This document shows positions 11,161 through 45,084 of a stretch of DNA of 64,000 nucleotides, in pieces. The notes beneath the pieces are model-generated. The model was not told the DNA's origin. It searched no databases and saw only the letters and a program-made list of their open reading frames with translations. The position numbers and the translations under genes were made by a program. Origin of the DNA: Candidatus Latescibacterota bacterium (GTDB taxonomy: Bacteria > Latescibacterota > UBA2968); the NCBI GenBank assembly GCA_965198115.1, contig OZ240241.1, positions 6,592,001 through 6,656,000 on the forward strand, given 5' to 3'. Each line of letters starts with the position of its first letter. Positions within the stretch are counted from its first letter, which is position 1.

Positions 11161-11414
11161 ACGAATCGTTTCCCTGAGGTCCGCTATCTTCAGCCTAAGC
11201 AAACCCAAACGCCGGCTGTCGACTCTGAACCACCGAACACTGAACACCGAACACCCCGTACGCGCCAGCGGACGGAACGGCCAATATAGCCGCGGCTCCC
11301 CACCGTCACAAACGCACCGATTTGCTTTGACAGCGCAAGACACGGGTCACACATTTAGCAACGTCACCGGTATCATTCATCAGCCCATCGAAGCACATCG
11401 AACCCAGGTGAAGA

Positions 11415-11522
11415 TCAGCGCGCTGGCGGCGAGGCAATTGCCAGACCGAAGATGTTGATGGCCGAATAGACCTTGTGGCGAAGCAGATATCGGATGGCTA
11501 CGAGGAGCTGATTTCGGAGCAT
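11415..11522 (-). pseudogene. N-terminal stub of a MacB-like ABC permease (35 aa)
   Basis: MLRNQLLVAIRYLLRHKVYSAINIFGLA is nearly identical to the start of 474-992, then the frame ends. Confidence 0.75.
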
Positions 11523-11579
11523 GACGAGGTCCCCTGCTTGAAATGCGCAGCCTGAACAAAGAGATAGATACACTGTCAG

Positions 11580-11594
11580 GCAATGCCTGTGCCA
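11580..11594 (-). promoter_or_regulatory. sigma54 (-24/-12) promoter
   Basis: Minus strand TGGCAC-AGGCA-TTGC, exact consensus, about 58 bp upstream of ATG 11522. Confidence 0.75.
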
Positions 11595-11719
11595 CACCTT
11601 ATTTTGCCCGTTTTCGAGTGATTCCGCGCCTCGGATTGTCCGATTGTGGGACGACACTGTCCGCGAACGGACATTCGCGGACGTCATCTGGCCGATGCAC
11701 GGTTCGCTAGGCAGAAATA

Positions 11720-11760
11720 GGAAAAGGGCGACCGTCTCAGTTATCGACGATCGCCCTTCG
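11720..11760 (-). terminator. Intrinsic terminator of the fli-like operon
   Basis: Minus strand gaagggcgatcgtc..gacggtcgcccttttcc, about 27 bp after stop 11787. Confidence 0.7.
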
Positions 11761-11786
11761 GATGAGGTTTCGAACAGGGTGTGGTT

Positions 11787-12101
11787 TCAGTCCTCCAGGA
11801 CCTCCGTCACGCGCATCCCGAAGATCGACTTTGCCCGCGATGGCCATTGTCTTCCGTGTGTCGTTCCTCCCGGCACGTCGACGACGACCACCTCTCCTCG
11901 GGCGACGAGGGCATCATTCGCACGAAGGTCGGCCGTGTAGTGACCGTCCTGATTCAGTTTCGAGTCGGGGAGTTCGATCAGCGAACCTTCGGAACAGATC
12001 ATGAAGAAGTCGATTGGGAGTCTCCTCCGACCCAACTCGATTCGGACATCCGTAGGAACATCTGATGCCGCACTCTCGGTCTGTTTCGTTTCTTCGGACA
12101 C
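11787..12101 (-). CDS. FliN/FliM-C (SpoA) domain protein, divergent
   Basis: DVRIELGRRRL, GSLIEL, LVARGEVVVV, FGMRVTEVL. Confidence 0.8.
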   Translation of the reverse strand: MSEETKQTESAASDVPTDVRIELGRRRLPIDFFMICSEGSLIELPDSKLNQDGHYTADLRANDALVARGEVVVVDVPGGTTHGRQWPSRAKSIFGMRVTEVLED

Positions 12102-12112
12102 GACTCTTCCTC

Positions 12113-13369
12113 CTACATCAGTGGTTCGCGTTCGCCTCTGACGACCACAATCTTTCCGTTGGCGTCGAGGTCCCGAACGATATAGACGATCTTAATCTGA
12201 ACATCTTCGACATCGCCGACTCGAACCATTCCAAGTCCGGCGGCCGCCGATTCGTAGGCCTTCTGTCTGTCTTCACTGAGATTCTCGACGAATCGACGTG
12301 TGATCCTTTCTTCAGCGCCCCGGAGGGCAAGCGCCAGATCCTCGGGATCGGTCTCATTCAGGACCGCCCTGAGATCGCTGTCGGCAAGGTTGGCGATGTC
12401 GTTAAAAGTGAACATCTGTAGCCGGACCTTTTCGGCCAGATCTGCATCTACGTCGTCGAGCGTTTCCAGGCACGCCTTTTCTGTCGAGCGTCCCGAGTAA
12501 TTCAAAATCTGCGCGAGAACTTCCGGTCCTCCGGTCGACGTGCTGCCCGAAGTCAGTGCGTCTATCTCCTCGGCGAGATTCTCCTCCAGACGCTGCATGA
12601 CTTCAGGAGATACGCGCTCGAGCGTGGCGATTCTACCCGTGACGTCACTTTGGATCTTCTCGGGCAATCCATTCAGAATAGCCGCGGCTTTCAGGCTGTC
12701 GATCTGGGAAAGAATCAGCGCGAGGGTTTGAGGGTGTTCCTTTTGAAATTTGGAGATCAGCTGCTCGTGATCGATATCATTCATGCGTCGGAACACTTCA
12801 CCCGTTGTTCCCTTGATTTCGGCCATCAACGCGAATCGTCGATTGCCACGAGCGCTGTAAAGGAAGCCGTGGACAAAGTCGCCACCCCCTCGTGAGCCGA
12901 CGTTTCCTCCGACGAGACACGCTCTTGCTTCCTCGATGACTTCCACTTTCCGCGTTGCGGGAATCGATTTCACGTCGAGGATGTATGCGGAAACTGCACG
13001 CAGATCATCGTCATCGCAATGCTGAAAGACTCTCCCTGCGAGGAGCGGCCCGAGATGCATTGCGACGATTGCGGCCCGTTCGAGGCCTTCCTGCCCGATC
13101 TCGGTGCCCGTTCGCGTCGCATCCAGGAAATCCTGAAGCAGGCGGGCGACAAGGCTCGGTTGCCGCTCGGCAATCTGCTCGAGCGAGTCGTCAGGGGCGA
13201 TCGTGTCGCTGACGGGCGTCGCCCATTTCGAAGGAACCGCGGCCTCTTCGGGCCGGGAAGCACTTCGTGCCGTTTGACGATCCGGATGAAGATGAAAGTC
13301 CATAGGTGGAGCCTCACCGGATACGTTCAGGACGGGTGGCTGCCAAGTCTGGACAGAGGATTCGGACAT
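12113..13369 (-). CDS. fliG: FliG-like switch protein with N-terminal extension
   Basis: GLERAAIV, EHPQTLALILS, TGGPEVLAQILN and MFTFNDI motifs; gagg RBS before ATG 13369. Confidence 0.88.
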   Translation of the reverse strand: MSESSVQTWQPPVLNVSGEAPPMDFHLHPDRQTARSASRPEEAAVPSKWATPVSDTIAPDDSLEQIAERQPSLVARLLQDFLDATRTGTEIGQEGLERAAIVAMHLGPLLAGRVFQHCDDDDLRAVSAYILDVKSIPATRKVEVIEEARACLVGGNVGSRGGGDFVHGFLYSARGNRRFALMAEIKGTTGEVFRRMNDIDHEQLISKFQKEHPQTLALILSQIDSLKAAAILNGLPEKIQSDVTGRIATLERVSPEVMQRLEENLAEEIDALTSGSTSTGGPEVLAQILNYSGRSTEKACLETLDDVDADLAEKVRLQMFTFNDIANLADSDLRAVLNETDPEDLALALRGAEERITRRFVENLSEDRQKAYESAAAGLGMVRVGDVEDVQIKIVYIVRDLDANGKIVVVRGEREPLM

Positions 13370-13388
13370 GGTGTGCCTCGTCTTGGCG

Positions 13389-13679
13389 TCAGGATTTTGG
13401 AAAACCGTTAACACGAATGGCCAGGTTGTCGCCTACAACGACGACTTCGCCGAAGCAGAAGAGACGACCATTTGCGAGCACTTCGACAGGTGTTCCGGTC
13501 AGCTTGTCGGTCTCGATCAGATCGCCGCTGTTGACGCTCAGGACTTCTTCGATCGTCATGCGTGCCTCTCCGAGCACGACGACCACGTCGAGTTCGGCGC
13601 TGCCAATCCGCCCGAGTCTCGATTCGACATCGGGGAGCCAGTTCGGATCGATCCGTTCTTGGGTGGCTGATTCTGCCAT
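13389..13679 (-). CDS. fliN: FliN-like switch protein
   Basis: LDVVVVLGEARMTIEEVL, PVEVLANGRLFCFGEVVVVGDNLAIRV. Confidence 0.9.
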   Translation of the reverse strand: MAESATQERIDPNWLPDVESRLGRIGSAELDVVVVLGEARMTIEEVLSVNSGDLIETDKLTGTPVEVLANGRLFCFGEVVVVGDNLAIRVNGFPKS

Positions 13680-13699
13680 TGGATTCTCCTGGATGCAGT

Positions 13700-15163
13700 C
13701 TAGTCGTGAAAGTAGCGTGATTTCTCAGAGGGTCTGACTGCCCTCTCCACGCGAACGGCGTGTCGCCCTCTGGGAGAAGCCCCTGCCGTTCCGACGAAGA
13801 GCGGGTCTCCATCGAGATGAACACTCGCCGGCTGGTCTTCGAGGTTGCCGATCGTAAGAATGTCCCCCACACGGGCGTGGTTCAGTGCATCCGCAGTCAT
13901 TCTCGTCCTACCGAGGACCGTTGTCAGGTCGATCTCGGTTCCCTTCAGGGCATCCAATCGATCCTGTCTTTGTTGCGATGACAGTCTCTTTCGATACCCC
14001 CGGCTTGCCCAGTTCTGCACGTTCAGGACCGACTTGGCCGGTTCGAGTGTGAAGTAGGGATAGCAGAGGTTCAGCATACCGGACGACCGGGCGCTGTTGA
14101 TCTCCATCGCTATGAGAACGACCGTGTCTGACGGCGCTGCGATCTGCATGAACTCCGGATTGGTCTCCAATTCGGCATCGGAAACTCTGAATTTGAGGAG
14201 GGGTGCCCACGTGGCCTCGAGGTCGGCGAGGACCTGGGTGATGATCGGATTCATCACGCCCCGCTCGACCGGGGTTGTCGGACGACGTTCGTACGGAAGC
14301 CTCGGCCGGTTACCGCCGAACGCACGTGTCACGAAGTCGTAGACGATGGGCAGGCTGAAATTGAGTATTGCCGGGCCGTGCAGGGGTTCGACCGTGAATG
14401 TGTAGGACACTGTGGGATTGCTGAGGTAGTCGATGAATTCGCCGTAGGTTGTCTGGTCGACGAAGGCGATATCGCAATCGACGATCGACTGCTGTGCTCG
14501 TGAAAAGGTGGAGGCGACCATCCGGGCGAAGTTCGAGTGCAAGTTCTCGAGCGTGCGCATCTGGTCTTTCGATACGCGCGAGGGATGCCTGAAGTCGTAG
14601 GTGAGTGTCAGGCGTCTGCTTTTCTTCCGGTCTTCGTCACGCTTTTGACGGTTCTCCTGTCGTGCCTGGATGGTCTCCAGCGGATCGGGCCCGACAAGCG
14701 CTTTCTCGGGATAGACGAGGCGATCGATGTCCGACTGGCTGACCTGCTCGGGCAGCGTATCCCAATCCTCTTTAGACGTCGCATTCGGTAGGTTCGGCTT
14801 TCGATCGAGCCAACGGGCCCGAATCCGAAGATCGCTCTCTTTCCACGGAGCCAGAAGGAGATCCGTCGCACCCACTCTCAGCAGGTCAATGACATCCTTC
14901 CTCGAACTGGACTGAGAGAGCACGAGGACGTGCGTCCTTCGGTAGGGATGCTTGTTGATGGACCGAATCTCTTCGATCAGGTGACGCCTCGCGTCATCTC
15001 CCTCGAATTCCAGATCGGTAACGAGGACCAGGGGGCCGTTCCACTCGATATCTGTGAGGGCATCGTCGAGCGTTTTCGTCAATTTGCGCCCCAGGTAGGC
15101 CTCAGTCAGGGCCTGGTAAGCCCGTCCTGCTTCGCCATTCGCATTGCCTGCTGTTACGATCAT
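13700..15163 (-). CDS. fliM: FliM with fused N-terminal receiver-like domain
   Basis: YDFRHPSRVSKDQMRTLENLH, VDQTTYGEF, ETNPEFMQIAAP, LNLCYPY; N-terminal about 120 aa resemble a receiver domain. Confidence 0.9.
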   Translation of the reverse strand: MIVTAGNANGEAGRAYQALTEAYLGRKLTKTLDDALTDIEWNGPLVLVTDLEFEGDDARRHLIEEIRSINKHPYRRTHVLVLSQSSSRKDVIDLLRVGATDLLLAPWKESDLRIRARWLDRKPNLPNATSKEDWDTLPEQVSQSDIDRLVYPEKALVGPDPLETIQARQENRQKRDEDRKKSRRLTLTYDFRHPSRVSKDQMRTLENLHSNFARMVASTFSRAQQSIVDCDIAFVDQTTYGEFIDYLSNPTVSYTFTVEPLHGPAILNFSLPIVYDFVTRAFGGNRPRLPYERRPTTPVERGVMNPIITQVLADLEATWAPLLKFRVSDAELETNPEFMQIAAPSDTVVLIAMEINSARSSGMLNLCYPYFTLEPAKSVLNVQNWASRGYRKRLSSQQRQDRLDALKGTEIDLTTVLGRTRMTADALNHARVGDILTIGNLEDQPASVHLDGDPLFVGTAGASPRGRHAVRVERAVRPSEKSRYFHD

Positions 15164-15218
15164 CGTTCAGCTCCGTGTCCAGCTGCGTGGAGTAAGGAAC
15201 TCGGACTGATTCCGCTGC

Positions 15219-15647
15219 TCATCCGGTGCGTTGACCGAGTCCTGGTTCGGTCCAGATGCTGAGCTCGGGTCGCGACCTGATCTGTTCACGAACTCGCCCC
15301 TCCGCTTCGTAGCCGGAGCGTGCCGTGTCCCGATCTCGCATTTCTTCGACCGTCTGTCGAAGTTCGCGAACCTCGCTCGCCAATCCCTTGACGATGAGGG
15401 CCAGGTCTTCAACGCTGGTGCCCGATTCGCGTTTTGGCAATTGCGCTTCGATACGCGACCAGAGATCCCCGGGCGCTTCAACGGCGTCGGCATTCGACGC
15501 GATCTCCCAGGCGGTCATTTGTGATTCGTAGTCCTGACGGCAGCGGTCGCACTCGGCGAGATGGGATTCCACGTCCCGTCGCTGGTCGTGGCCGAGTTCG
15601 TCGTCGATGTAGGCGGTGATGTTCTGTTCGCAGGTGAAGCAGTTCAT
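15219..15647 (-). CDS. zf-HC2 (ZAS) anti-sigma factor, soluble
   Basis: C..ITAYIDDEL..ESHLAECDRC (HxxxCxxC); coiled-coil-like C-terminus, no obvious transmembrane segment. Confidence 0.88.
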   Translation of the reverse strand: MNCFTCEQNITAYIDDELGHDQRRDVESHLAECDRCRQDYESQMTAWEIASNADAVEAPGDLWSRIEAQLPKRESGTSVEDLALIVKGLASEVRELRQTVEEMRDRDTARSGYEAEGRVREQIRSRPELSIWTEPGLGQRTG

Positions 15648-15782
15648 GACATTGTCCGTTGGTTGTGAAGCCGCTCGCCCTTCGATACGGCGATCTGAGC
15701 ACTCCGGAAGGGTGTCGTGATGTCACTTACCAGACGTCTACTCAGGATGAGCGGTCGTTGTCTTACTGAACGATCCATTGAG

Positions 15783-16339
15783 CTACCCATTGAGATAGGT
15801 TGAAAGGGCGTCGCGGACTCTCTTGCGTGCCCTGTGCATTCTCATTTTGACGGCGTCCTCGGTGCATTCGAGGACGTCTGCGATCTGGCGATAGCGAAGA
15901 CCTTCGACCGTTCCGAGGATGAAGACGATTCTGAGTGACTCGGTGAGGTGGTCGATGGCAGATTGCATTCGCCGATTGGTCTCCTTGCGCACGAGCTGCT
16001 CTTCGGGTGTTGGCCCCGGTCGATGGGGACAATCGGGTCGTCCTCGTCGTCGAAGCTCCTCGACTCTGGGCGACCACGTCGTGCTGCTTTGAGACAACGA
16101 TTGACCGCGATTCGATATAGCCACGTCCCGAAGGATGATTCTGCACGAAAACGCTGTATGCCTTTGAACGCATCGATAAAGGCTTCCTGAGTGAGGTCGG
16201 CCGCGTCTTCCGCATTGCCCGTCATATGTCGGCAGAGGGCGAAAATGCGATCGCTGTGTAGATCGTAAACCTGGCGGAAGGCAGAGGGGTCGCCTTGCTG
16301 ACAGGCGGCGATCAATGTGAGTTCGACGTGCGTTTCCAC
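15783..16339 (-). CDS. ECF sigma-70 factor, one frameshift near 16015
   Basis: Region 2 (DAADLTQEAF, FGTWLYRIAVN) in ORF 15842-16339; region 4 (EGLRYRQIADVL, VKMRMHRAR) in ORF 15783-16376. Confidence 0.9.
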
Positions 16340-16644
16340 GCAGTGTGTCTCCGCGGTGGCTGTCGGTTCTGTTCATTTAGAGCCAGTATACGTCTGAAGG
16401 TAACACCGCAATCGGAAAGGCGCATAAAATATTGATTCCTATGAATTTACAGATATAGGAGAGCGTCGGGTCGCGTTGACGCCGGGCAGGGTGGGCCGTA
16501 TATTGGCACCCCGTTGACGGCCTGAGATGATGTAGTTGACAAGGTTCAGTCGTCAGGTAGGCATGCGGGTGCCGGTGCGCACGCATTTGCGAGGACGATT
16601 GCACGGATTCAGGTGTTGGAACCTAGAAGAGATGTGGCGGGCGG

Positions 16645-17583
16645 ATGATTGAGACAGGTGAAGATGGCGGCCTGACAGCAGGAATCGCAGGTGTCGCTAA
16701 CGGGCCGGTTTCCTGGGGTGTGCTCGAGTATCTGGAGCCAGGCCAGGGTCCCAGTCCGAGTCAGTATCTGGACGAATTGGCGGAGACAGGCTACACAGGT
16801 ACCGAACTCGGGGACCTGGGATTCCTTCCGACGGACGGTGAGGTGCTCCGCAGCGAGCTGATGGACCGCGATCTGACGATGGTCGGGTCGTTCGTGGGAC
16901 TCCATTTGGCGAATCCCGACTATGCGCTCGAGGATGAGCGTCGCGCGGTCGAAGTCGCTCGGCTGCTGTCGGCGGCCGGAGGCGAAGATCCGATCCTCAT
17001 CTTAGCGGACGACCCGTGCGTGGATCCCGCACGGACGGACTTCGCTGGCCAGGTCCTGCCAGAAATGGCGATGGCGGAGGCCCAGTGGGAGTATGCGGCG
17101 CAAATGTTGGATTCGATCTCATTGATGGTGTTCGAGGAACTGGGCATGCGGTCTGCGTTCCACGCCCACTGTGCAACCTTTGTCGAAACGCCGGAGGAGT
17201 TGGACATCATGATGGCCTACACCCACCCACACGTCCTGGGTCTCTGTCTGGATACCGCACACTACGCCTTTGGTGGTGGTGACCCGCTCAGACTCGTGGA
17301 GCGGTATCGAGAACGGGTGTGGCACGTGCACTTCAAGGGATACGACCCGGCAGTCGCGGGCGAAGCGAGGGAAAAAGGCTGGGACTATCACGAGTCCATC
17401 GAGCGGGAAGTTTTCTGCGAGCTGGACCGGAGTGCGATCGATTACGCGACCATCCTCGATGGTCTGGATCAGGTCGGATACAACGGATGGGTGACGGTAG
17501 AGCAGGATATCCACCCGGGCATGGGGAACGCCGTGGAGAGCGCGAGGCGGAATCGGGAGTTTCTCAAGGGACTGGGGATATAG
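16645..17583 (+). CDS. iolE: myo-inosose-2 dehydratase-like TIM barrel
   Basis: ANGPVSWG, GYTGTELG, FHAHCAT, CLDTAHY, HVHFK, VEQD; upstream of iolD. Confidence 0.75.
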   Translation: MIETGEDGGLTAGIAGVANGPVSWGVLEYLEPGQGPSPSQYLDELAETGYTGTELGDLGFLPTDGEVLRSELMDRDLTMVGSFVGLHLANPDYALEDERRAVEVARLLSAAGGEDPILILADDPCVDPARTDFAGQVLPEMAMAEAQWEYAAQMLDSISLMVFEELGMRSAFHAHCATFVETPEELDIMMAYTHPHVLGLCLDTAHYAFGGGDPLRLVERYRERVWHVHFKGYDPAVAGEAREKGWDYHESIEREVFCELDRSAIDYATILDGLDQVGYNGWVTVEQDIHPGMGNAVESARRNREFLKGLGI

Positions 17584-17624
17584 ATGGAACCACAGAATGC
17601 ACAGAGCACACTGAGGGAAGACAG

Positions 17625-17942
17625 ATGGCTGCATACGTGATTGCCGATGTCGAGGTGACGGATCCGGAGAAATACGAAGCTTACAAGGATGGGGTTCCGG
17701 CTCTTGTGGAGAAACACGGTGGAGAATACGTCGTTCGGGGTGGGGAGCACGTGGTGCTGGAAGGGGACTGGGAACCTCGACGTCTTGTGCTCATGAAATT
17801 TCCCGATCGCGCGAGCGCTGAGGCGTTCTGGGATGATCAGGACTATCAGCCGTTGAAAGCCGCCCGGCACGCTTCGGCCGACTCAAGACTGGTCCTGGTC
17901 GAAGGGATTCTGACACGGTGCCACAGTTTCTCTACATCCTGA
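17625..17942 (+). CDS. DUF1330 family protein
   Basis: MAAYVIADVEVTDPEKYEAY..HGGEYVVRGG..VLEGDW. Confidence 0.88.
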   Translation: MAAYVIADVEVTDPEKYEAYKDGVPALVEKHGGEYVVRGGEHVVLEGDWEPRRLVLMKFPDRASAEAFWDDQDYQPLKAARHASADSRLVLVEGILTRCHSFSTS

Positions 17943-18238
17943 CGCCGACGCGGGCAGAGATGCTGACCGAGGGTCCGACCGAAGACGAGCAGCGGATCAC
18001 GGGAGAACACTTTCGATATCTCCAGAATCTGTGTCGGAATGGGGTTGTGCATCTGGCGGGGCGGACACTGGAGACGGGTGCGGATACGATCGGGCTCGTG
18101 ATCTTCCAGGCGGAATCGGAGGAGACAGCACGGGAGCTGATGGAGAACGATCCGGCGGTACGGAACGATGTAATGAGGGCCGAGGTCTTTCCCTACAGCA
18201 TTGCGCTCGCGAACGTGCAGGCGACAGGGATCGAGTAG
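17918..18238 (+). CDS. YciI-related protein
   Basis: EHFRYL, HLAGRT, LMENDPAV. Confidence 0.8.
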   Translation: MPQFLYILTPTRAEMLTEGPTEDEQRITGEHFRYLQNLCRNGVVHLAGRTLETGADTIGLVIFQAESEETARELMENDPAVRNDVMRAEVFPYSIALANVQATGIE

Positions 18239-18337
18239 AAAAGAGCGCCACTGAGATTACTGAGGACACTGAGCGAAAGAGAGTCGGGGAACGACAAGAA
18301 CTCTGAGAAAAACCGACACGGAGATAGAGGTGAGATC

Positions 18338-20203
18338 ATGAAGACGCGGCGGTTGACGATGTCGCAGGCGATCGTGCAGTTCTTAAAGGTCCAGTACGTG
18401 TCGAGGGATGGGGAAGAACAGCCCTTTTTCGGGGGGATGTTCGGGATTTTCGGACACGGGAACGTGGCCGGGATCGGGCAGGCGCTGCATCAGTACGCGG
18501 ACGAGTTCCGGTTTTACCAGACGCGGAACGAGCAGGCGATGGTCCACACGGCGATCGCGTATGCGAAGATGAAGGATCGCCTGGGCACGTTTGCGTGCAC
18601 GTCGTCGATCGGGCCTGGCGCGACGAACATGGTGACCGGGGCTGCGACGGCAACGATCAACCGGCTTCCAGTTCTGCTGCTTCCGGGAGACATCTTCGCG
18701 CGACGGAACGTGGCGCCGGTCCTGCAGCAGCTGGAGTCGCCATCGTCGCAGGATGTTTCGGTCAACGATTGCTTCAAACCGGTGTCCCGCTACTGGGATC
18801 GGTTGAATCGTCCGGACCAGGCCATCACCGCGCTACCTGAGGCGATGCGGGTGCTGACGTCGCCTTCTGAGACGGGAGCCGTGACACTCTGCTGCCCGCA
18901 GGATGTTCAAGCAGAGGCGTTCGATTACCCCGAATCGCTCTTCGAGAAGCGTGTTTGGACCGTGTCCCGTCCCCGTGCGGATCGTGATCTGATCGCGCAG
19001 GTGGTGACGTCGATCGAGGCGAGCAAACGGCCGATCATCGTCGCCGGTGGGGGTGTGATCTACAGCGGCGCCACCGAAGCGCTCGCGAAGCTGGTGGCCA
19101 AGACAGGCATCCCCGTGGGTGAGACGCAGGCCGGCAAAGGGTCGATGCGTTACGACCAGTCTGGTGCACTTGGGGCGATCGGTGTGACCGGTACGCCTGG
19201 CGCGAATATCCTGGCTCGCGAAGCGGATCTTGTCATCAACATCGGGACCCGATTGAGCGACTTCACGACCGCTTCGAAGACGGCTTTCCAAAACCCGGAT
19301 GTCTCCTTCGTGTCGATCAACGTTGGGGAATTCGATGCAGCCAAACACGGTTCGCTCCCGCTGGTCGGTGACGCGAAGGTGACGATCGAAGAGCTGACGT
19401 CGGGACTCGAAGGATTTCGCGTGGATGACGCGTATTCAGCACGAATCTCCGAGTTCCAGGGCGAGTGGGATGCGGAGGTCGAACGCATCTACACGCTCGG
19501 GCATCGACCGATTCTGAGCCAGGGCGAAGTCATCGGCGCTGTGAACGAGGCGTCGAATGACCGTGATGTGATGATCTGCGCGGCCGGCAGTCTACCGGGC
19601 GATCTGCACAAATTGTGGCGGACACGTGATCCGAAGCAATATCACCTCGAATACGGCTATTCGTGCATGGGCTACGAGATCGCCGGCGGTCTTGGAATCA
19701 AGATGGCGGATCCCTCTCGCGAAGTGTATGTGATGGTGGGCGACGGGTCGTATCTGATGATGGCGCAGGAGATCATGACCTCGATACAAGAGGACGTGAA
19801 ATTGACGATCGTGCTCGTCGATAACCACGGACACGCCAGTATCGGCGGGTTGTCGGAGTCCACGGGCTCTGATGGTTTCGGAACGAAGTTCAAGATGCGG
19901 GATGTTGCGAGCGGTCACCTGGATGGTGACAACGTCCCCACTGATCTGGCGGCGAACGCCGAAAGTCTCGGGGCCATCGTCCTGCGTCCAGAGGGCAGGG
20001 AAGGGCTGATGAACGCACTGGCCGAAGCAAAGGGCAACGACCGAACCACAGTTATCGCGATCGAGACCGACCGCGAAGAAAGAGTGGCGGGCTATGAGAG
20101 CTGGTGGGATTGCCCCATCGCGGAGGTATCGACGGTCGACGAAGTGCAACGGCTGCGGAAAGAGTACGAACAACACGTTGCACGCGAACGGTACCACCTG
20201 TAA
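18338..20203 (+). CDS. iolD: 3D-(3,5/4)-trihydroxycyclohexane-1,2-dione acylhydrolase (TPP enzyme)
   Basis: GIFGHGNVAG, RNEQAM, TSSIGPGATN, YHLEYGYSCMGYE, GDGSYLM. Confidence 0.95.
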   Translation: MKTRRLTMSQAIVQFLKVQYVSRDGEEQPFFGGMFGIFGHGNVAGIGQALHQYADEFRFYQTRNEQAMVHTAIAYAKMKDRLGTFACTSSIGPGATNMVTGAATATINRLPVLLLPGDIFARRNVAPVLQQLESPSSQDVSVNDCFKPVSRYWDRLNRPDQAITALPEAMRVLTSPSETGAVTLCCPQDVQAEAFDYPESLFEKRVWTVSRPRADRDLIAQVVTSIEASKRPIIVAGGGVIYSGATEALAKLVAKTGIPVGETQAGKGSMRYDQSGALGAIGVTGTPGANILAREADLVINIGTRLSDFTTASKTAFQNPDVSFVSINVGEFDAAKHGSLPLVGDAKVTIEELTSGLEGFRVDDAYSARISEFQGEWDAEVERIYTLGHRPILSQGEVIGAVNEASNDRDVMICAAGSLPGDLHKLWRTRDPKQYHLEYGYSCMGYEIAGGLGIKMADPSREVYVMVGDGSYLMMAQEIMTSIQEDVKLTIVLVDNHGHASIGGLSESTGSDGFGTKFKMRDVASGHLDGDNVPTDLAANAESLGAIVLRPEGREGLMNALAEAKGNDRTTVIAIETDREERVAGYESWWDCPIAEVSTVDEVQRLRKEYEQHVARERYHL

Positions 20204-41302: not shown

Positions 41303-42722
41303 GGCTCTATCCGGGTTTCTCAACGGTGAAACTGTAGAATGACAAGGTCATAGATCGTTCCCTACGCTTGGTTGTGTGTGTAGGACAATCAAAGCGAAGG
41401 GGGTGCGACCTATGACCGGGAGCAGATTACTATCGAAACTGCTGAGATTCAAGGGGTTCCGTGTTGTCAGCTGGTGGTTTGAGGGGAGAAGCTGCTTCGT
41501 CATCGCCGTAAAGCCACATAAGAATGGTTGTTGTTGTCCGGAGTACGGCCGTCGAGGTAAAATCGTCCGCACAATGCCCCATCCGCGTCGGTGGCGTGAC
41601 ATTCCGGTGTGCGGGTGGAGGGTCTGGCTTCTCTACCATCCTCGGGAGATTCGGTGTCCTACCCACGGTCGTGTGGTCGAGGAGATTCCGTGGGCGGAGC
41701 GGTTCTCTCGGGTGACGTATCGCTTCGAGTATGCCATGCTGCGCTACTGCCAGACCATGACGCAGAAGGCGGCGTCCGAGTTGCTGCGCATCTCTGCCTC
41801 GACGCTGTCGGATCTCCTTCACCGATCCATCACGCGGCTTCGTGAAGGTCATCGTATCCGAGGGCTCAAAACCATCGGGATCGACGAGATCTCCTACGCC
41901 AAGCGTCACAGGTACGCCACGCTCGTTTACGATCTGGACCGCTCCTGCGTGGTGTGGGTTGGCCGCGGCAGGGCGCGTAAAACGATCGATCGGTTCTTCA
42001 CAGAGGCTCTCAGTCCCTACCGGAGATCCAAGATCGAGTGGGCCTGCTGCGACATGAGCGAAGCTTACATCGGAGCCATCCAGGAACACTGTCCGAATGC
42101 CAAGCTGGTCCTCGATCGCTTTCACATCGTCAAGGCTCTCAATGCCGCCGTTGACGAGGTCCGTAAGGACCAGTGGCGTAAAGCTGCCCCGGATGAGCGC
42201 AAAGCCATGAAGGGCCTCCGATGGCTCCTCTACCGGCACTCAGCGACACGCTCCAGAGGGGATACTCGGACACTCAAAGCACTGGAGAAGGCGAACTACC
42301 GAATCTATAGAGCCTGGAGACTCAAGGACGAGTTCGAGCAGTTCTGGGAATACAAAGCGCCCTGGGCTGCCGAACGCTTCCTGAAATGCTGGACGACGTC
42401 CGCACTCAGAAGTCGACTTGAACCCCTGCGAAAGTTCGTCAGGACCCTGCGACAGCACTTCTTCGGCGTCCTCGCATTCGTGAACACGCGTCTTACCAAC
42501 GCCATCGCCGAAGGCCTCAACCGAATCGTCCAAATCGTCAAGAACCGAGCCAGCGGATTCCGCACACTCGACGCATTCAACGATATGATCTTCCTTACCG
42601 TCGGAGACATAAACATCCCTGAGCAGATTCCGAAGAGGTTCCGCACACTCTAACCGCGCCCCCATGCCAGGAACCACGGCACCTTCACCCACTTCAGCTC
42701 GTTGAGAGATCCGGATATAGCC
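41303..42722 (+). mobile_element. ISL3-family element; transposase about 41412-42653
   Basis: IRs ggctctatccgggtttctcaacg and (revcomp) ggctatatccggatctctcaacg; IGIDEI, CCDMS, DRFH, TNAIAEGLN. Confidence 0.94.
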
Positions 42723-45084
42723 AGAAAATGGACCCCAGCGAAAGTACGAGGATTGCAAGTGATGGGATGAGGAAGAAGTGAATGCCGACGGGCACCTGGT
42801 TCGAAAACATTTCGAGGATGACCTTGACAGTAAAGTGCGCAGCGATGCTTCCAAGCACACAGCCGATTACAGCGAGGGCGATCAGACGCCGGGCGAGGAG
42901 ACCGAAAACCGAAGTGACCGATGCTCCCAGAACCTTTCGCACGCCAACTTCTTTCGTTCGCCTGGCAAGGGTGTGAAGAGCGAGGCCGAACAGCCCCAGG
43001 CACGAAATAACGATGCCGAAGACAGATGCCGTGTACCCAAGGGGTTGGAGAAGATTCGTCGCCTCCTCCATTTGACGGGAGATGATGACGTCGAGCGGGT
43101 TGAGTGTGCTGGGTGTATCCGGCGAGACCTCCTTCCAAATCTCCTCGAGCTGGGGAACGACCTCTCCGATTCGGTCGGGCTTCATTCGTATGAGCACCCT
43201 GGCCTTCTGCAATCCAGGGTCCTGGTGAAGAATGACCGGAAACATCGGAGCGGCGCCGTGGAGATAGACGAAGTCCTCGAGGACGCCCACAACGTGGGGA
43301 TGGTCGATTTCTCCGTAGGTGAAGGGCAGGGTCTGGCCAATGGCGTCGTCCCATTCCATTTTCTCGACCATATACTCATTCACGAGCACTTCGTCGAGCG
43401 GGCCGTCTGTTCGCAGATTCTTCCCCTCCTTTAGGGTCAGTCCGTACGTATCGACGAATTCAGGTGTAACGGAACCGTGGAATATCTGCATCTCGGGTTC
43501 TTTGATCTCGTAGAAATGAGCGCCCTGGCCGAATGTGGTCGATGAACCCGCAACGTTTTCGACGCCTGGCAAGGCCATCACGCGTGGACGGTAACGGTCG
43601 TAGAGACGTTCGAAGTCTTCGCTGTTGGGGTCGATCGCGAAGATGACGGACGGATCGTAGCCGCGATTGAACGTGTTCGTGTAGTCGAATTGTTTCAAAA
43701 CGATCTGGGTCGAAGCAAGGAGGAAGATGGCAGCAGCGAACTGGATGATGACGAGGAGACGGGCGAATCGGTTCTTGCCACCACCCCCACCCAGTCCTTT
43801 GAGTGCGGAGACGGGTTCGACGCGTGAGAGGGCATAGGCGGGATAGAAGCCGGCGATGGTCCCGACGGTCAGGGGCAACAGGATGATGAAGGCCCAGAAG
43901 ATGGGCGTATGGGACCACCCGAGCGCGTAGTTGGGGAAAAAGGAGAAAAGGGAAGCCATTTCAGGCATCAGGTAGTTGGCGAGCGATGCACCCACGACGG
44001 TCGAGATCGAGCATAAAAAGACAGCTTCGATCACGTGCTGGCCGATGAGGTGCGCCCGTGCGGCACCTGCCACTTTGCGCAGACCGATCTCTCGTGTGCG
44101 GTGGACGGATCGACCGAGCGAAAGGATGGTGAAATTCACGCATCCGACGAGAAGAACCAGACCCCCGAGCAAGCCCACAATCTGGATGAGGATCGGCGGC
44201 ATGATGAAGAGTTGACCGCCCCCCATCTGACCTCCTTCGAACATCTCGCCATACTGCTGAACATGGAGACCATAGGGGCTTTCCTCCTTGGACCATTTTC
44301 CCGAGCTGCGAAGATCGGCCTCATCGCTACCGAAGTAACTTTGCACTAACCCGGGCAGCCCGTGCTCGATGACGGAGCGATCATCGGGATGCTTCAGCAA
44401 GAGGAAGGTCATTGCGATGCGGTCGGAAAGATTGACCTGGGATTCGCTGAGCCCGCCACTCACAAGATCCCAGGGCAGTAGCGCTGTGAACTGAAGCGAC
44501 GACCGATACGTGGGATCGTAGGCGATTGCGGAGACCACCATTTCGTGCGGTTTGTTGGCCTGCGTAAAGAAGGTGATGCGCTGGCCGACGAGGTCTGCGA
44601 CGTCGCCATCGGTGAATCGCTTTGCAGTCTTAGCGGTGAGGACGATTTCGTTCGGTGTCGTCAATGGTCTGGTGTTTCCGTGCATGATGTCGAAAGAGAG
44701 TGTTGTGAAGAACGTGCTGTCGACGAATGCCATCGAATTGATGCGTGTTATAAAGTCGTCGATCCGGAGTCGTCCCCACGTTCTTCGGAAACGAACAGAT
44801 TCCTCGATCTCGGGAAACGACCGTTCGAGCTCGGGACCCAGGCTCTGTGGAAGCGTCGCGCTTCTGAGCTCCCACTCATTCTCTCCCGTGTCGTCGGTCA
44901 TGTAGACGCGGAAGATCCGGTCACCGTTGAGGTGGAAGTCGTCGCGGATCCATTCGTGCTGGAGAAACACGAAGACGAGCAGCGCACAGGCGAGTCCGAG
45001 GGTCAGGCTGAGGACGCTGATGAGGCTGACGCCCTTGTCACGGACCAGATATCGCCAGGCGGTGGTGAGGTAGTTGGTGAGCAT
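42723..45084 (-). CDS. MacB/FtsX-like ABC permease, last residues replaced by the ISL3 end
   Basis: RTREIGLRKVAGA and RTKEVGVRKVLGA; lacks the terminal PVxALR motif seen in paralogs. Confidence 0.9.

Follow-up and report, generated by a model that had tools for sequence, protein, structure and literature searches.

The window analysed here, a 64,000-nucleotide stretch of contig OZ240241.1 from a Candidatus Latescibacterota bacterium (the source genome, G000; other G numbers denote compared genomes, and f and g numbers their families and genera), carries six genes in which homologues of the flagellar switch proteins FliG, FliM, and FliN follow a sigma factor of the extracytoplasmic function (ECF) type and an anti-sigma factor (herein referred to as the cassette). 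Pfam and NCBIfam profiles recover all six, on the minus strand and at the coordinates given by an earlier note made from the sequence alone: the ECF sigma gene (15783..16339), a soluble zf-HC2 (ZAS) anti-sigma factor of 142 aa (15219..15647), a pseudo-receiver::FliM fusion of 487 aa (13700..15163), a type A FliN (13389..13679), a FliF_C::FliG fusion of 418 aa (12113..13369), and a second, type B FliN (11787..12101). On the same strand, an ECF-type promoter motif (TGTTACCTT-N15-TCTAA; 16377..16405) lies upstream of the sigma gene and an intrinsic-terminator-like hairpin with a U-rich tail (11712..11759) follows the last FliN. The earlier note had described a compact, co-oriented six-gene unit; gene content and strand stand, and the five reading frames besides sigma are open, but the sigma gene is a pseudogene in G000, frameshifted near 16013. 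The claim that the unit is closed by its own terminator holds, the hairpin having 14 base pairs (11759-11723) and a folding energy of -27.3 kcal/mol that none of 200 shuffled sequences equalled (z -3.84); a consensus scanner overlooked it because its loop is 9 nt. An overview of open reading frames (ORFs) and genome-wide searches likewise agree with the note that fliF, fliH/I, mot, export-gate, and che genes are all absent from the 64 kb.

Foldseek returns, as best matches of the cassette proteins, proteins with the same domains and fold as those of the flagellar cytoplasmic (C) ring. In the motor, the first domain of FliG is normally wrapped by the C-terminus of FliF (FliF_C), a signal passes from the FliM N-terminus through the FliM middle domain and FliG to the torque helix (PMC11087270, in part), and FliG R281 pairs with MotA E98 as the torque-generating contact (PMC4030992, in part). 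The window FliG, which probably starts at 13369 (ATG, with GAGG upstream) rather than at 13414, combines Pfam FliG_N, FliG_M, and FliG_C with a FliF C-terminal-like peptide ahead of FliG_N (13130..13195). A hidden Markov model (HMM) built from the corresponding segments of other cassettes retrieves eight FliF C-termini among 56,830 ORFs (E 1e-5 to 9e-3) and the window segment at E 0.0097; the reciprocal HMM, built from FliF C-termini, finds cassette segments, the one in the window at just 1.4 bits. In three plasmid records the tblastn match to the window FliG extends across genes annotated as fliF and fliG, and in the structure model the peptide forms helices at residues 63-69 and 71-84 with a predicted local distance difference test score (pLDDT) of 84-96. 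With this peptide fused in cis, FliG_N is probably not free for the FliF_C of the membrane (MS) ring, and from the sequence its binding site is likely self-occupied. Cassette FliGs usually have the tail of FliF, without its membrane part, and in genus g28 FliG_N is deleted altogether.

The torque helix of the window FliG is degenerate (12245..12271): the positions of Escherichia coli R281, D288, D289, and R297 are occupied by D, S, A, and R, with an Arg one position past that D. We aligned 81 FliG sequences (the loci gathered, a non-exhaustive set), classing cassette proteins by gene context (16 ECF-linked and 16 from other fliM/N/G cassettes). The stator contact R281 is present in 3 of 23 complete cassette FliGs against all 43 complete stand-alone FliGs (~338 aa), and the full set of four charges in 2/23 against 43/43. 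Nine further cassette FliGs lack the torque region through fusion, truncation, frameshift, or a contig end, and FliG_C is naturally absent from some cassettes (G036, G105, and the kinase fusions described below). Carrying FliF_C in cis and having lost its torque charges, the cassette FliG should neither bind an MS ring nor drive a stator. The alignment also shows that the EHPQ and MFxF motifs are retained.

The FliM fusion begins with a weak receiver match (E 0.00089, below the Pfam cut-off), followed by a CheY-binding-like peptide (VSQSDIDRL) and by FliM and FliMN_C matches. Its receiver does not appear phosphorylatable, as it keeps the Asp without the acidic pocket and Lys. The FliG-binding loop of FliM reads FGGN in the window and FGGxG in most orthologues, and the EHPQ of FliG_M is kept. 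Both FliNs match FliMN_C (type A, E 6e-20, with an alignment of 16 orthologues; type B, E 3.9e-8), and in alignment type B contains two insertions, of which one of 16 residues is absent from the other 16 aligned sequences. The N-terminal extension of FliG bears a V-x-x-W-x-P-P motif (13328..13354 in the window) in which the Trp is invariant in 22/22 sequences and the Pro conserved in at least 90%; the window copy keeps the Trp half alone. The motif resembles a peptide of the FliH/SctL adaptor, but homology to FliH is not supported, a profile comparison with native FliH N-termini giving no significant match (probability 0.5%, E 0.12).

In the window sigma gene, sigma-70 region 2 (in frame 16339-15842) and region 4 (in frame 16376-15783) fall in different frames, the gene being one base short near 16013 relative to a sister species. 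A long-read error is an unlikely cause, since a same-sample contig shows 0 differences over window positions 11300-17000, although it comes from one study and may be the assembly's own source. The split sigma pieces of the window do not score above the cut-off of any NCBIfam equivalog, and the label of stress sigma factor applies at the family level only. Regions 2 and 4 do lie in a single protein in 13 of the 19 orthologous cassettes, and these 13 sigma factors form one clade (Shimodaira-Hasegawa-like approximate likelihood ratio test, 99). The adjacent anti-sigma factor (zf-HC2, E 1.3e-9) has an HxxxCxxC zinc motif whose H29, C33, and C36 are invariant in 17/17 sequences and has no transmembrane helix; its model contains helices over residues 3-69 and then a single long helix (79-123), predicted to form a coiled coil. 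In a fold search the nearest structures are RsiW and RslA with weak E-values, and no match reaches E<=0.001. Its database family comprises 116 clusters, the few informative names among them being labels of Latescibacterota or neighbouring candidate phyla.

The promoter motif is exact in 15/19 cassette upstream regions and found in 18/19 by matrix scan, and across the 8.4 Mb of the genome there is no strong site besides the one in the window (28.2 bits, against 18.5 for the runner-up). ECF sigma factors typically autoregulate their own promoters, and the cassette sigma factor may, by analogy, read TGTTACCTT-N15-TCTAA and activate its own operon. Elsewhere, the motif stands 57 bp or a similar distance upstream of genes for lone FliM middle domains in G012 and G006, which have neither the GGxG loop nor a SPOA domain, and 38 bp ahead of a gene in G094 homologous to the one with which the cassette ends in genus g6. 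A wide regulon was considered and rejected: a phylum-wide pattern search gave 32 sites against ~28 for a reversed control pattern. The sites counted are those that precede the cassette sigma genes (16/19), a sigma gene in G149, the two lone FliM genes, and the cassette-linked gene of G094. Four sites fall inside long ORFs, and the second G105 site is located within a sigma-70 gene or at its start. In two g6 genomes an efflux adaptor-like gene is preceded by a TGTAACC variant of the promoter, at a frequency no higher than the control leads one to expect by chance. The promoter-bearing G094 gene belongs to a group of ~640-aa proteins, multi-copy in f4, whose gene comes after the cassette in genus g6 and for which we found no reliable family or fold; as it is found in 39/168 genomes, and was not found in G000, it is not a core part of the cassette.

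To place the cassette within its phylum, we surveyed 168 Latescibacterota genomes with a profile of the anti-sigma factor, which is present in one copy each in 20. In 19 of these it sits between the same sigma factor and fliM/N/G genes, across three families and two gene orders, and the linkage to an ECF factor proposed by the earlier note is thus conserved; the twentieth genome (G079) has a sigma/anti-sigma fusion ahead of a FliG_C-bearing gene. The switch genes run REC::fliM-fliN-fliG-fliN in f1/f2 (REC, receiver) and fliN-fliN-fliG-fliM in f4. Within-genus pairs give dN/dS ratios of 0.05-0.19 in g6 and 0.19-0.41 in g28 (~0.05 for two neighbouring metabolic genes in g1), indicating that the intact lineages of the cassette are under purifying selection. 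A metagenome scan yielded a single copy, belonging to the G001 lineage, besides a weak match.

Flagellar genes have been mentioned for Latescibacterota (PMC4454575, in part), and the cassette genomes carry them: FliP is present in 17/20 anti-sigma-bearing genomes against 43/148 others (kin not being independent) and FliF in 18/20, and the three genomes without FliP have flagellin-family matches. CheW is absent from 8/20 cassette genomes, so chemotaxis is not necessarily the input to the cassette. Five genomes were inspected (G000, G001, G036, G080, and G151), and in each of them fliF is directly followed by fliH and the main operon has no fliG. The fliG gene (and, in f1/f2, fliM) instead lies outside the main flagellar operon as scattered copies, with up to 11 FliG_M matches per genome, and flagellin-family matches are similarly scattered, 9-10 per genome in G000, G105, and G157.

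Phylogenetic analysis does not unite the FliG and FliM cores of the cassettes. A single clade of cassette sequences is rejected by the approximately unbiased (AU) test for both FliG (p 4.8e-6; p 9e-107 without the C-terminal columns) and FliM (p 7.6e-7), and the cassette FliG and FliM instead cluster with motor copies from the host group to which they belong. The FliG tree of 81 rows was inferred in quick mode and later trees have 59 rows, 22 having been dropped (near-duplicates, fragments, and two long branches); long branches limit the FliG and FliM trees, and the window FliG is the longest branch of its clade. The sigma factor, anti-sigma factor, promoter, and FliG extension are nevertheless common to cassettes with host-like cores. 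On the sequences available, the simplest reading would be a single old cassette in which the change at R281 persisted although motor genes renewed its cores time and again; alternatively, cassettes would have been assembled independently on several occasions.

Fusions elsewhere in the phylum bear on what such a module could do. FliG_N-M::HisKA(-HATPase-REC) proteins account for 16/19 database matches (16 clusters), and FliG::HisKA fusions in G093 and G105 lie within fliM/fliN cassettes, followed by REC-SpoIIE in G093 and G150. The FliG::kinase fusion is to us the most telling one, as its kinase stands where the motor protein has the domain that takes in the switch signal. ECF::FliM_M (~22) and ECF::FliG_C (5) fusions occur among the 120 clusters listed, and FGE-sulfatase::FliG, FliN::FGE, and single-chain FliM::FliN::FliG proteins are also encoded in the phylum.

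Several further loci of this kind were observed. FliG_N-M::hybrid histidine kinases occur in or beside fliM/fliN cassettes at L123:1205-4042, L124:2121-5216, and L126:3544-6720, with REC-SpoIIE or a sigma-54 activator as neighbours. G036 encodes ECF sigma factors extended at the C-terminus by a FliM middle domain (L083:6971-8122 and 16159-17316), and FliG_M-C::FecR-type proteins of ~560 aa are found at L079:1689-3353 and, frameshifted, at G000:C1:1711455-1712459; FliG matches of ~560-aa length occur in most flagellated f1/f2 genomes. The source genome also holds a second, non-ECF cassette (G000:C1:6266417-6271627) with fliM, fliN, a frameshifted FGE-sulfatase::FliF_C::FliG, fliN, and FliM::FliF_C::FliG. 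Short MotA-like genes adjoin or are fused with FliG_C fragments at G000:C1:4608365-4608805 and L075:10743-11942.

G000 itself, a single 8.43 Mb contig with many insertion sequence (IS)-like ORFs, has fliF, fliH, fliI, and nine flagellin-family matches. The genome contains ~8 FliG loci together with 5 matches to FliM and 9 to FliMN_C; the cassette genes are extra copies rather than the motor's own, which supports the reading of the earlier note. FlhA, FliP, FliQ, FliR, and CheW have no match genome-wide. Compared with G001, of the same genus, a deletion has fused fliK, truncated at residue 119, to the end of flhF (G000:4520151), removing flgD, flgE, flbD, the mot genes, fliN, fliO-R, flhB, and flhA; fliF, fliH, and fliA are frameshifted, and the stand-alone fliM is likewise broken. 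The junction region is confirmed by contigs from the same sample, and a long-read error was rejected as the source of the deletion, these contigs (from one study, and possibly the source of the assembly) matching the region with 0 differences. Since the hook, stator, and export-gate genes are deleted, the cell very likely builds no flagellum; the region (G000:C1:4513000-4522000) looks like a case of motility lost recently, in a genome rich in IS elements. G001, with its flagellar operon intact, lost the cassette independently: its sigma gene has an 84-nt deletion that differs from the lesion in G000, its anti-sigma gene is interrupted by a stop at codon 40, and its fliM is truncated. The sigma frameshift was considered as proof of flagellum-linked decay and set aside, being inseparable from a background in which 26/236 non-flagellar orthologues (11%) are broken between the two genomes (56/289 in a cruder screen). 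The cassette circuit in G000 is probably dead or dying.

We hypothesize that the cassette is an anchor-free, torque-free C-ring module that serves in signalling and is coupled to the flagellum, a reading to which we assign a probability of about 0.5. In this scheme, the sigma factor, freed by the zinc anti-sigma factor, would transcribe the operon and a few distant genes. FliF_C would fold onto its own FliG_N, giving a protein that is stable without an MS ring and unable to bind one, and units would assemble via contacts that are retained (EHPQ/GGxG and SPOA), with the WxP peptide perhaps acting as a clamp. The fused receiver would dock on the adjoining CheY-binding peptide and thereby set the switch state, and the resulting FliM-to-FliG change would be read by a regulator, not a stator. 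In sister cassettes this would be the fused kinase; here the read-out would most likely be the coiled coil of the anti-sigma factor, closing a feedback loop; this is the weakest step, and the anti-sigma factor as read-out of the switch is a guess by analogy. Exchange of the host-like cores with the native FliM/FliN/FliG pool would tie the signal to flagellar status. More tentatively, and with somewhat less confidence than we place in a signalling role as such, the C ring may have been turned into a group of membrane-free allosteric transducers in which a receiver flips an oligomer that acts on an anti-sigma factor, a kinase with SpoIIE, or a sigma factor.

The repurposing for a non-motor role that the earlier note proposed is therefore kept in part: the modified FliG (FliF_C in cis and R281 lost) and the kinase fusions speak for it, but independence from the flagellum is not supported, as the cassette was never found without flagellar genes (FliP 17/20, FliF 18/20) and its cores are host-like. 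Other observations also weigh against a signalling module. All 20 anti-sigma-bearing genomes carry flagellar genes, and the anti-sigma factor occurs in 0/36 FliP-less genomes of g4 and g7, which would fit a motor-directed role equally well. The sigma gene, a single intact ORF in 13/19 cassettes, is broken in five and unclear in one; the anti-sigma tail is poorly conserved; 3/11 fused receivers look phosphorylatable (one judged on partial sequence); and a FliH-like reading of the WxP motif is without statistical support. The ECF domain of the ECF::FliM proteins comes from another clade, in which many tails unrelated to one another are found (ankyrin, TPR, HEAT, and HisKA), and these fusions may reflect promiscuous shuffling.

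The association with flagellar genes, together with host-like cores for which the AU test rejects one clade in both FliG and FliM, would also be expected if the sigma output were anchor-blind and stator-blind subunits that titrate the native C ring or become incorporated in it, slowing or stopping its rotation or assembly without any feedback. FliM and FliN do exchange between motor and cytoplasm (PMC4030992, in part), clutch proteins such as EpsE are known (PMC3000366, in part), and the promoter motif also precedes lone FliM middle domains without GGxG and SPOA. One poisoned subunit would suffice for such a purpose, however, making a full FliG, FliM, and two FliNs with an anchor peptide unnecessary, and neither the replacement of the torque domain by a kinase nor the FGE-sulfatase-like domains inside FliG or FliN would be explained; we consider this account, a stress-induced decoy or clutch, unlikely, although it is the main rival to signalling. 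That the cassette is neutral debris, consisting of switch genes duplicated in an IS-rich lineage, by chance beside an ECF pair, and now drifting, is true in part for the source genus, where the G000 sigma gene is frameshifted, the sigma, anti-sigma, and fliM genes of G001 are broken, the window FliG is the longest branch of its clade, and 11% of orthologues (26/236) are broken between the two genomes. Drift would not be expected to produce linkage in three families, a conserved promoter, one sigma clade, and a directional change at R281, and the dN/dS values well below 1 largely refute this explanation for the family as a whole, for which we regard it as improbable. The main operon without fliG (and, in f1/f2, without fliM), with fliF directly followed by fliH in five genomes, could suggest that the cassette supplies a working alternative C ring, that is, isoforms that run the motor under some condition; EHPQ and MFxF are retained, and full-length FliF-FliG fusions form rings (PMC6079021 and PMC10941966, both in part). 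This seems to us very improbable, given that stand-alone canonical fliG and fliM genes with all torque charges exist, that the cassette protein has the FliF tail only and no membrane part, and that R281 is lost in 20/23 cassette FliGs and FliG_C is absent in some.

Compared with the flagellar C ring (Salmonella 8UMD/8UMX, Thermotoga 4FHR, and the FliF_C:FliG_N complex 5TDY), the cassette proteins share domains, fold, EHPQ, MFxF, and a CheY-binding-like peptide. They differ in carrying FliF_C in cis or a deleted FliG_N, in the loss of R281, in receiver and FGE-sulfatase-like fusions, in the presence of two distinct FliNs, a dedicated sigma factor and promoter, and in their location outside the flagellar operon of genomes that encode canonical copies elsewhere. 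The regulatory pair resembles SigW-RsiW, SigL-RslA, and SigR-RsrA in its sigma regions 2 and 4, adjacent HxxxCxxC anti-sigma factor, and upstream bipartite motif, whereas its anti-sigma factor ends in a conserved long helix and its co-oriented targets are C-ring genes. If the cassette products were to act on the native ring, the clutches and brakes EpsE, YcgR, and MotI would be possible functional analogues; these are unrelated proteins that bind FliG or MotA, whereas the candidates here are rotor paralogues. The injectisome sorting platform (SctQ/SctL) is likewise a non-motor use of FliM/FliN-type SPOA domains, but the cassette keeps the FliM middle domain and FliG. No SctJ/SctRSTUV/SctN-type export-gate, ATPase, or ring genes are found in the cassettes, and FHIPEP and FliP have no match in G000. 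The APAR peptides of the SPOA-APAR module and the FliH/OrgB adaptors (PMC4443714, in part) share with the FliG extension a G/R-hydrophobic stretch and a Trp, a likeness that is not statistically significant.

We found no description of such a cassette in the literature outside subscription journals, and FliM and FliG do not appear in the main text or in part of the supplement of an ECF classification paper (PMC7826278). The cassette lacks two of the properties that define a C ring in working order, is not linked to secretion genes, and is apparently an undescribed system. The C ring is a textbook cooperative switch that is normally tied to a membrane motor, making its allostery hard to study. 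A soluble, self-capped switch with a receiver input and a kinase or sigma output would, if the signalling reading is true, be a motor part exapted for gene regulation, a new signalling class that borrows the cooperativity of the switch, and a simple test bed for FliG/FliM/FliN assembly and switching without FliF or stators. Were the products instead to interfere with the native ring, they would still represent a new form of motility shut-down, acting via rotor paralogues. The window copy is a poor model, its sigma gene being broken; G080, G012, G094, G150, and G157, in whose cassettes the sigma gene is intact, are better choices.

Outside the cassette, short fragments at window positions 11415-11530 and 348-992 (MLRNQLLVAIRYLL...) resemble the N-terminus of the permease-like gene at 42694-45084 and are probably repeated remnants. 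Upstream, the cassette is adjoined by divergent sugar-phosphate-isomerase-type and thiamine pyrophosphate (TPP)-enzyme genes (16645-20203), which we take to be iolE/iolD-like. The same pair is the upstream neighbour of the cassette in G001, G006, G009, and G012, and in genus g6 and G005 a receiver gene separates the two.

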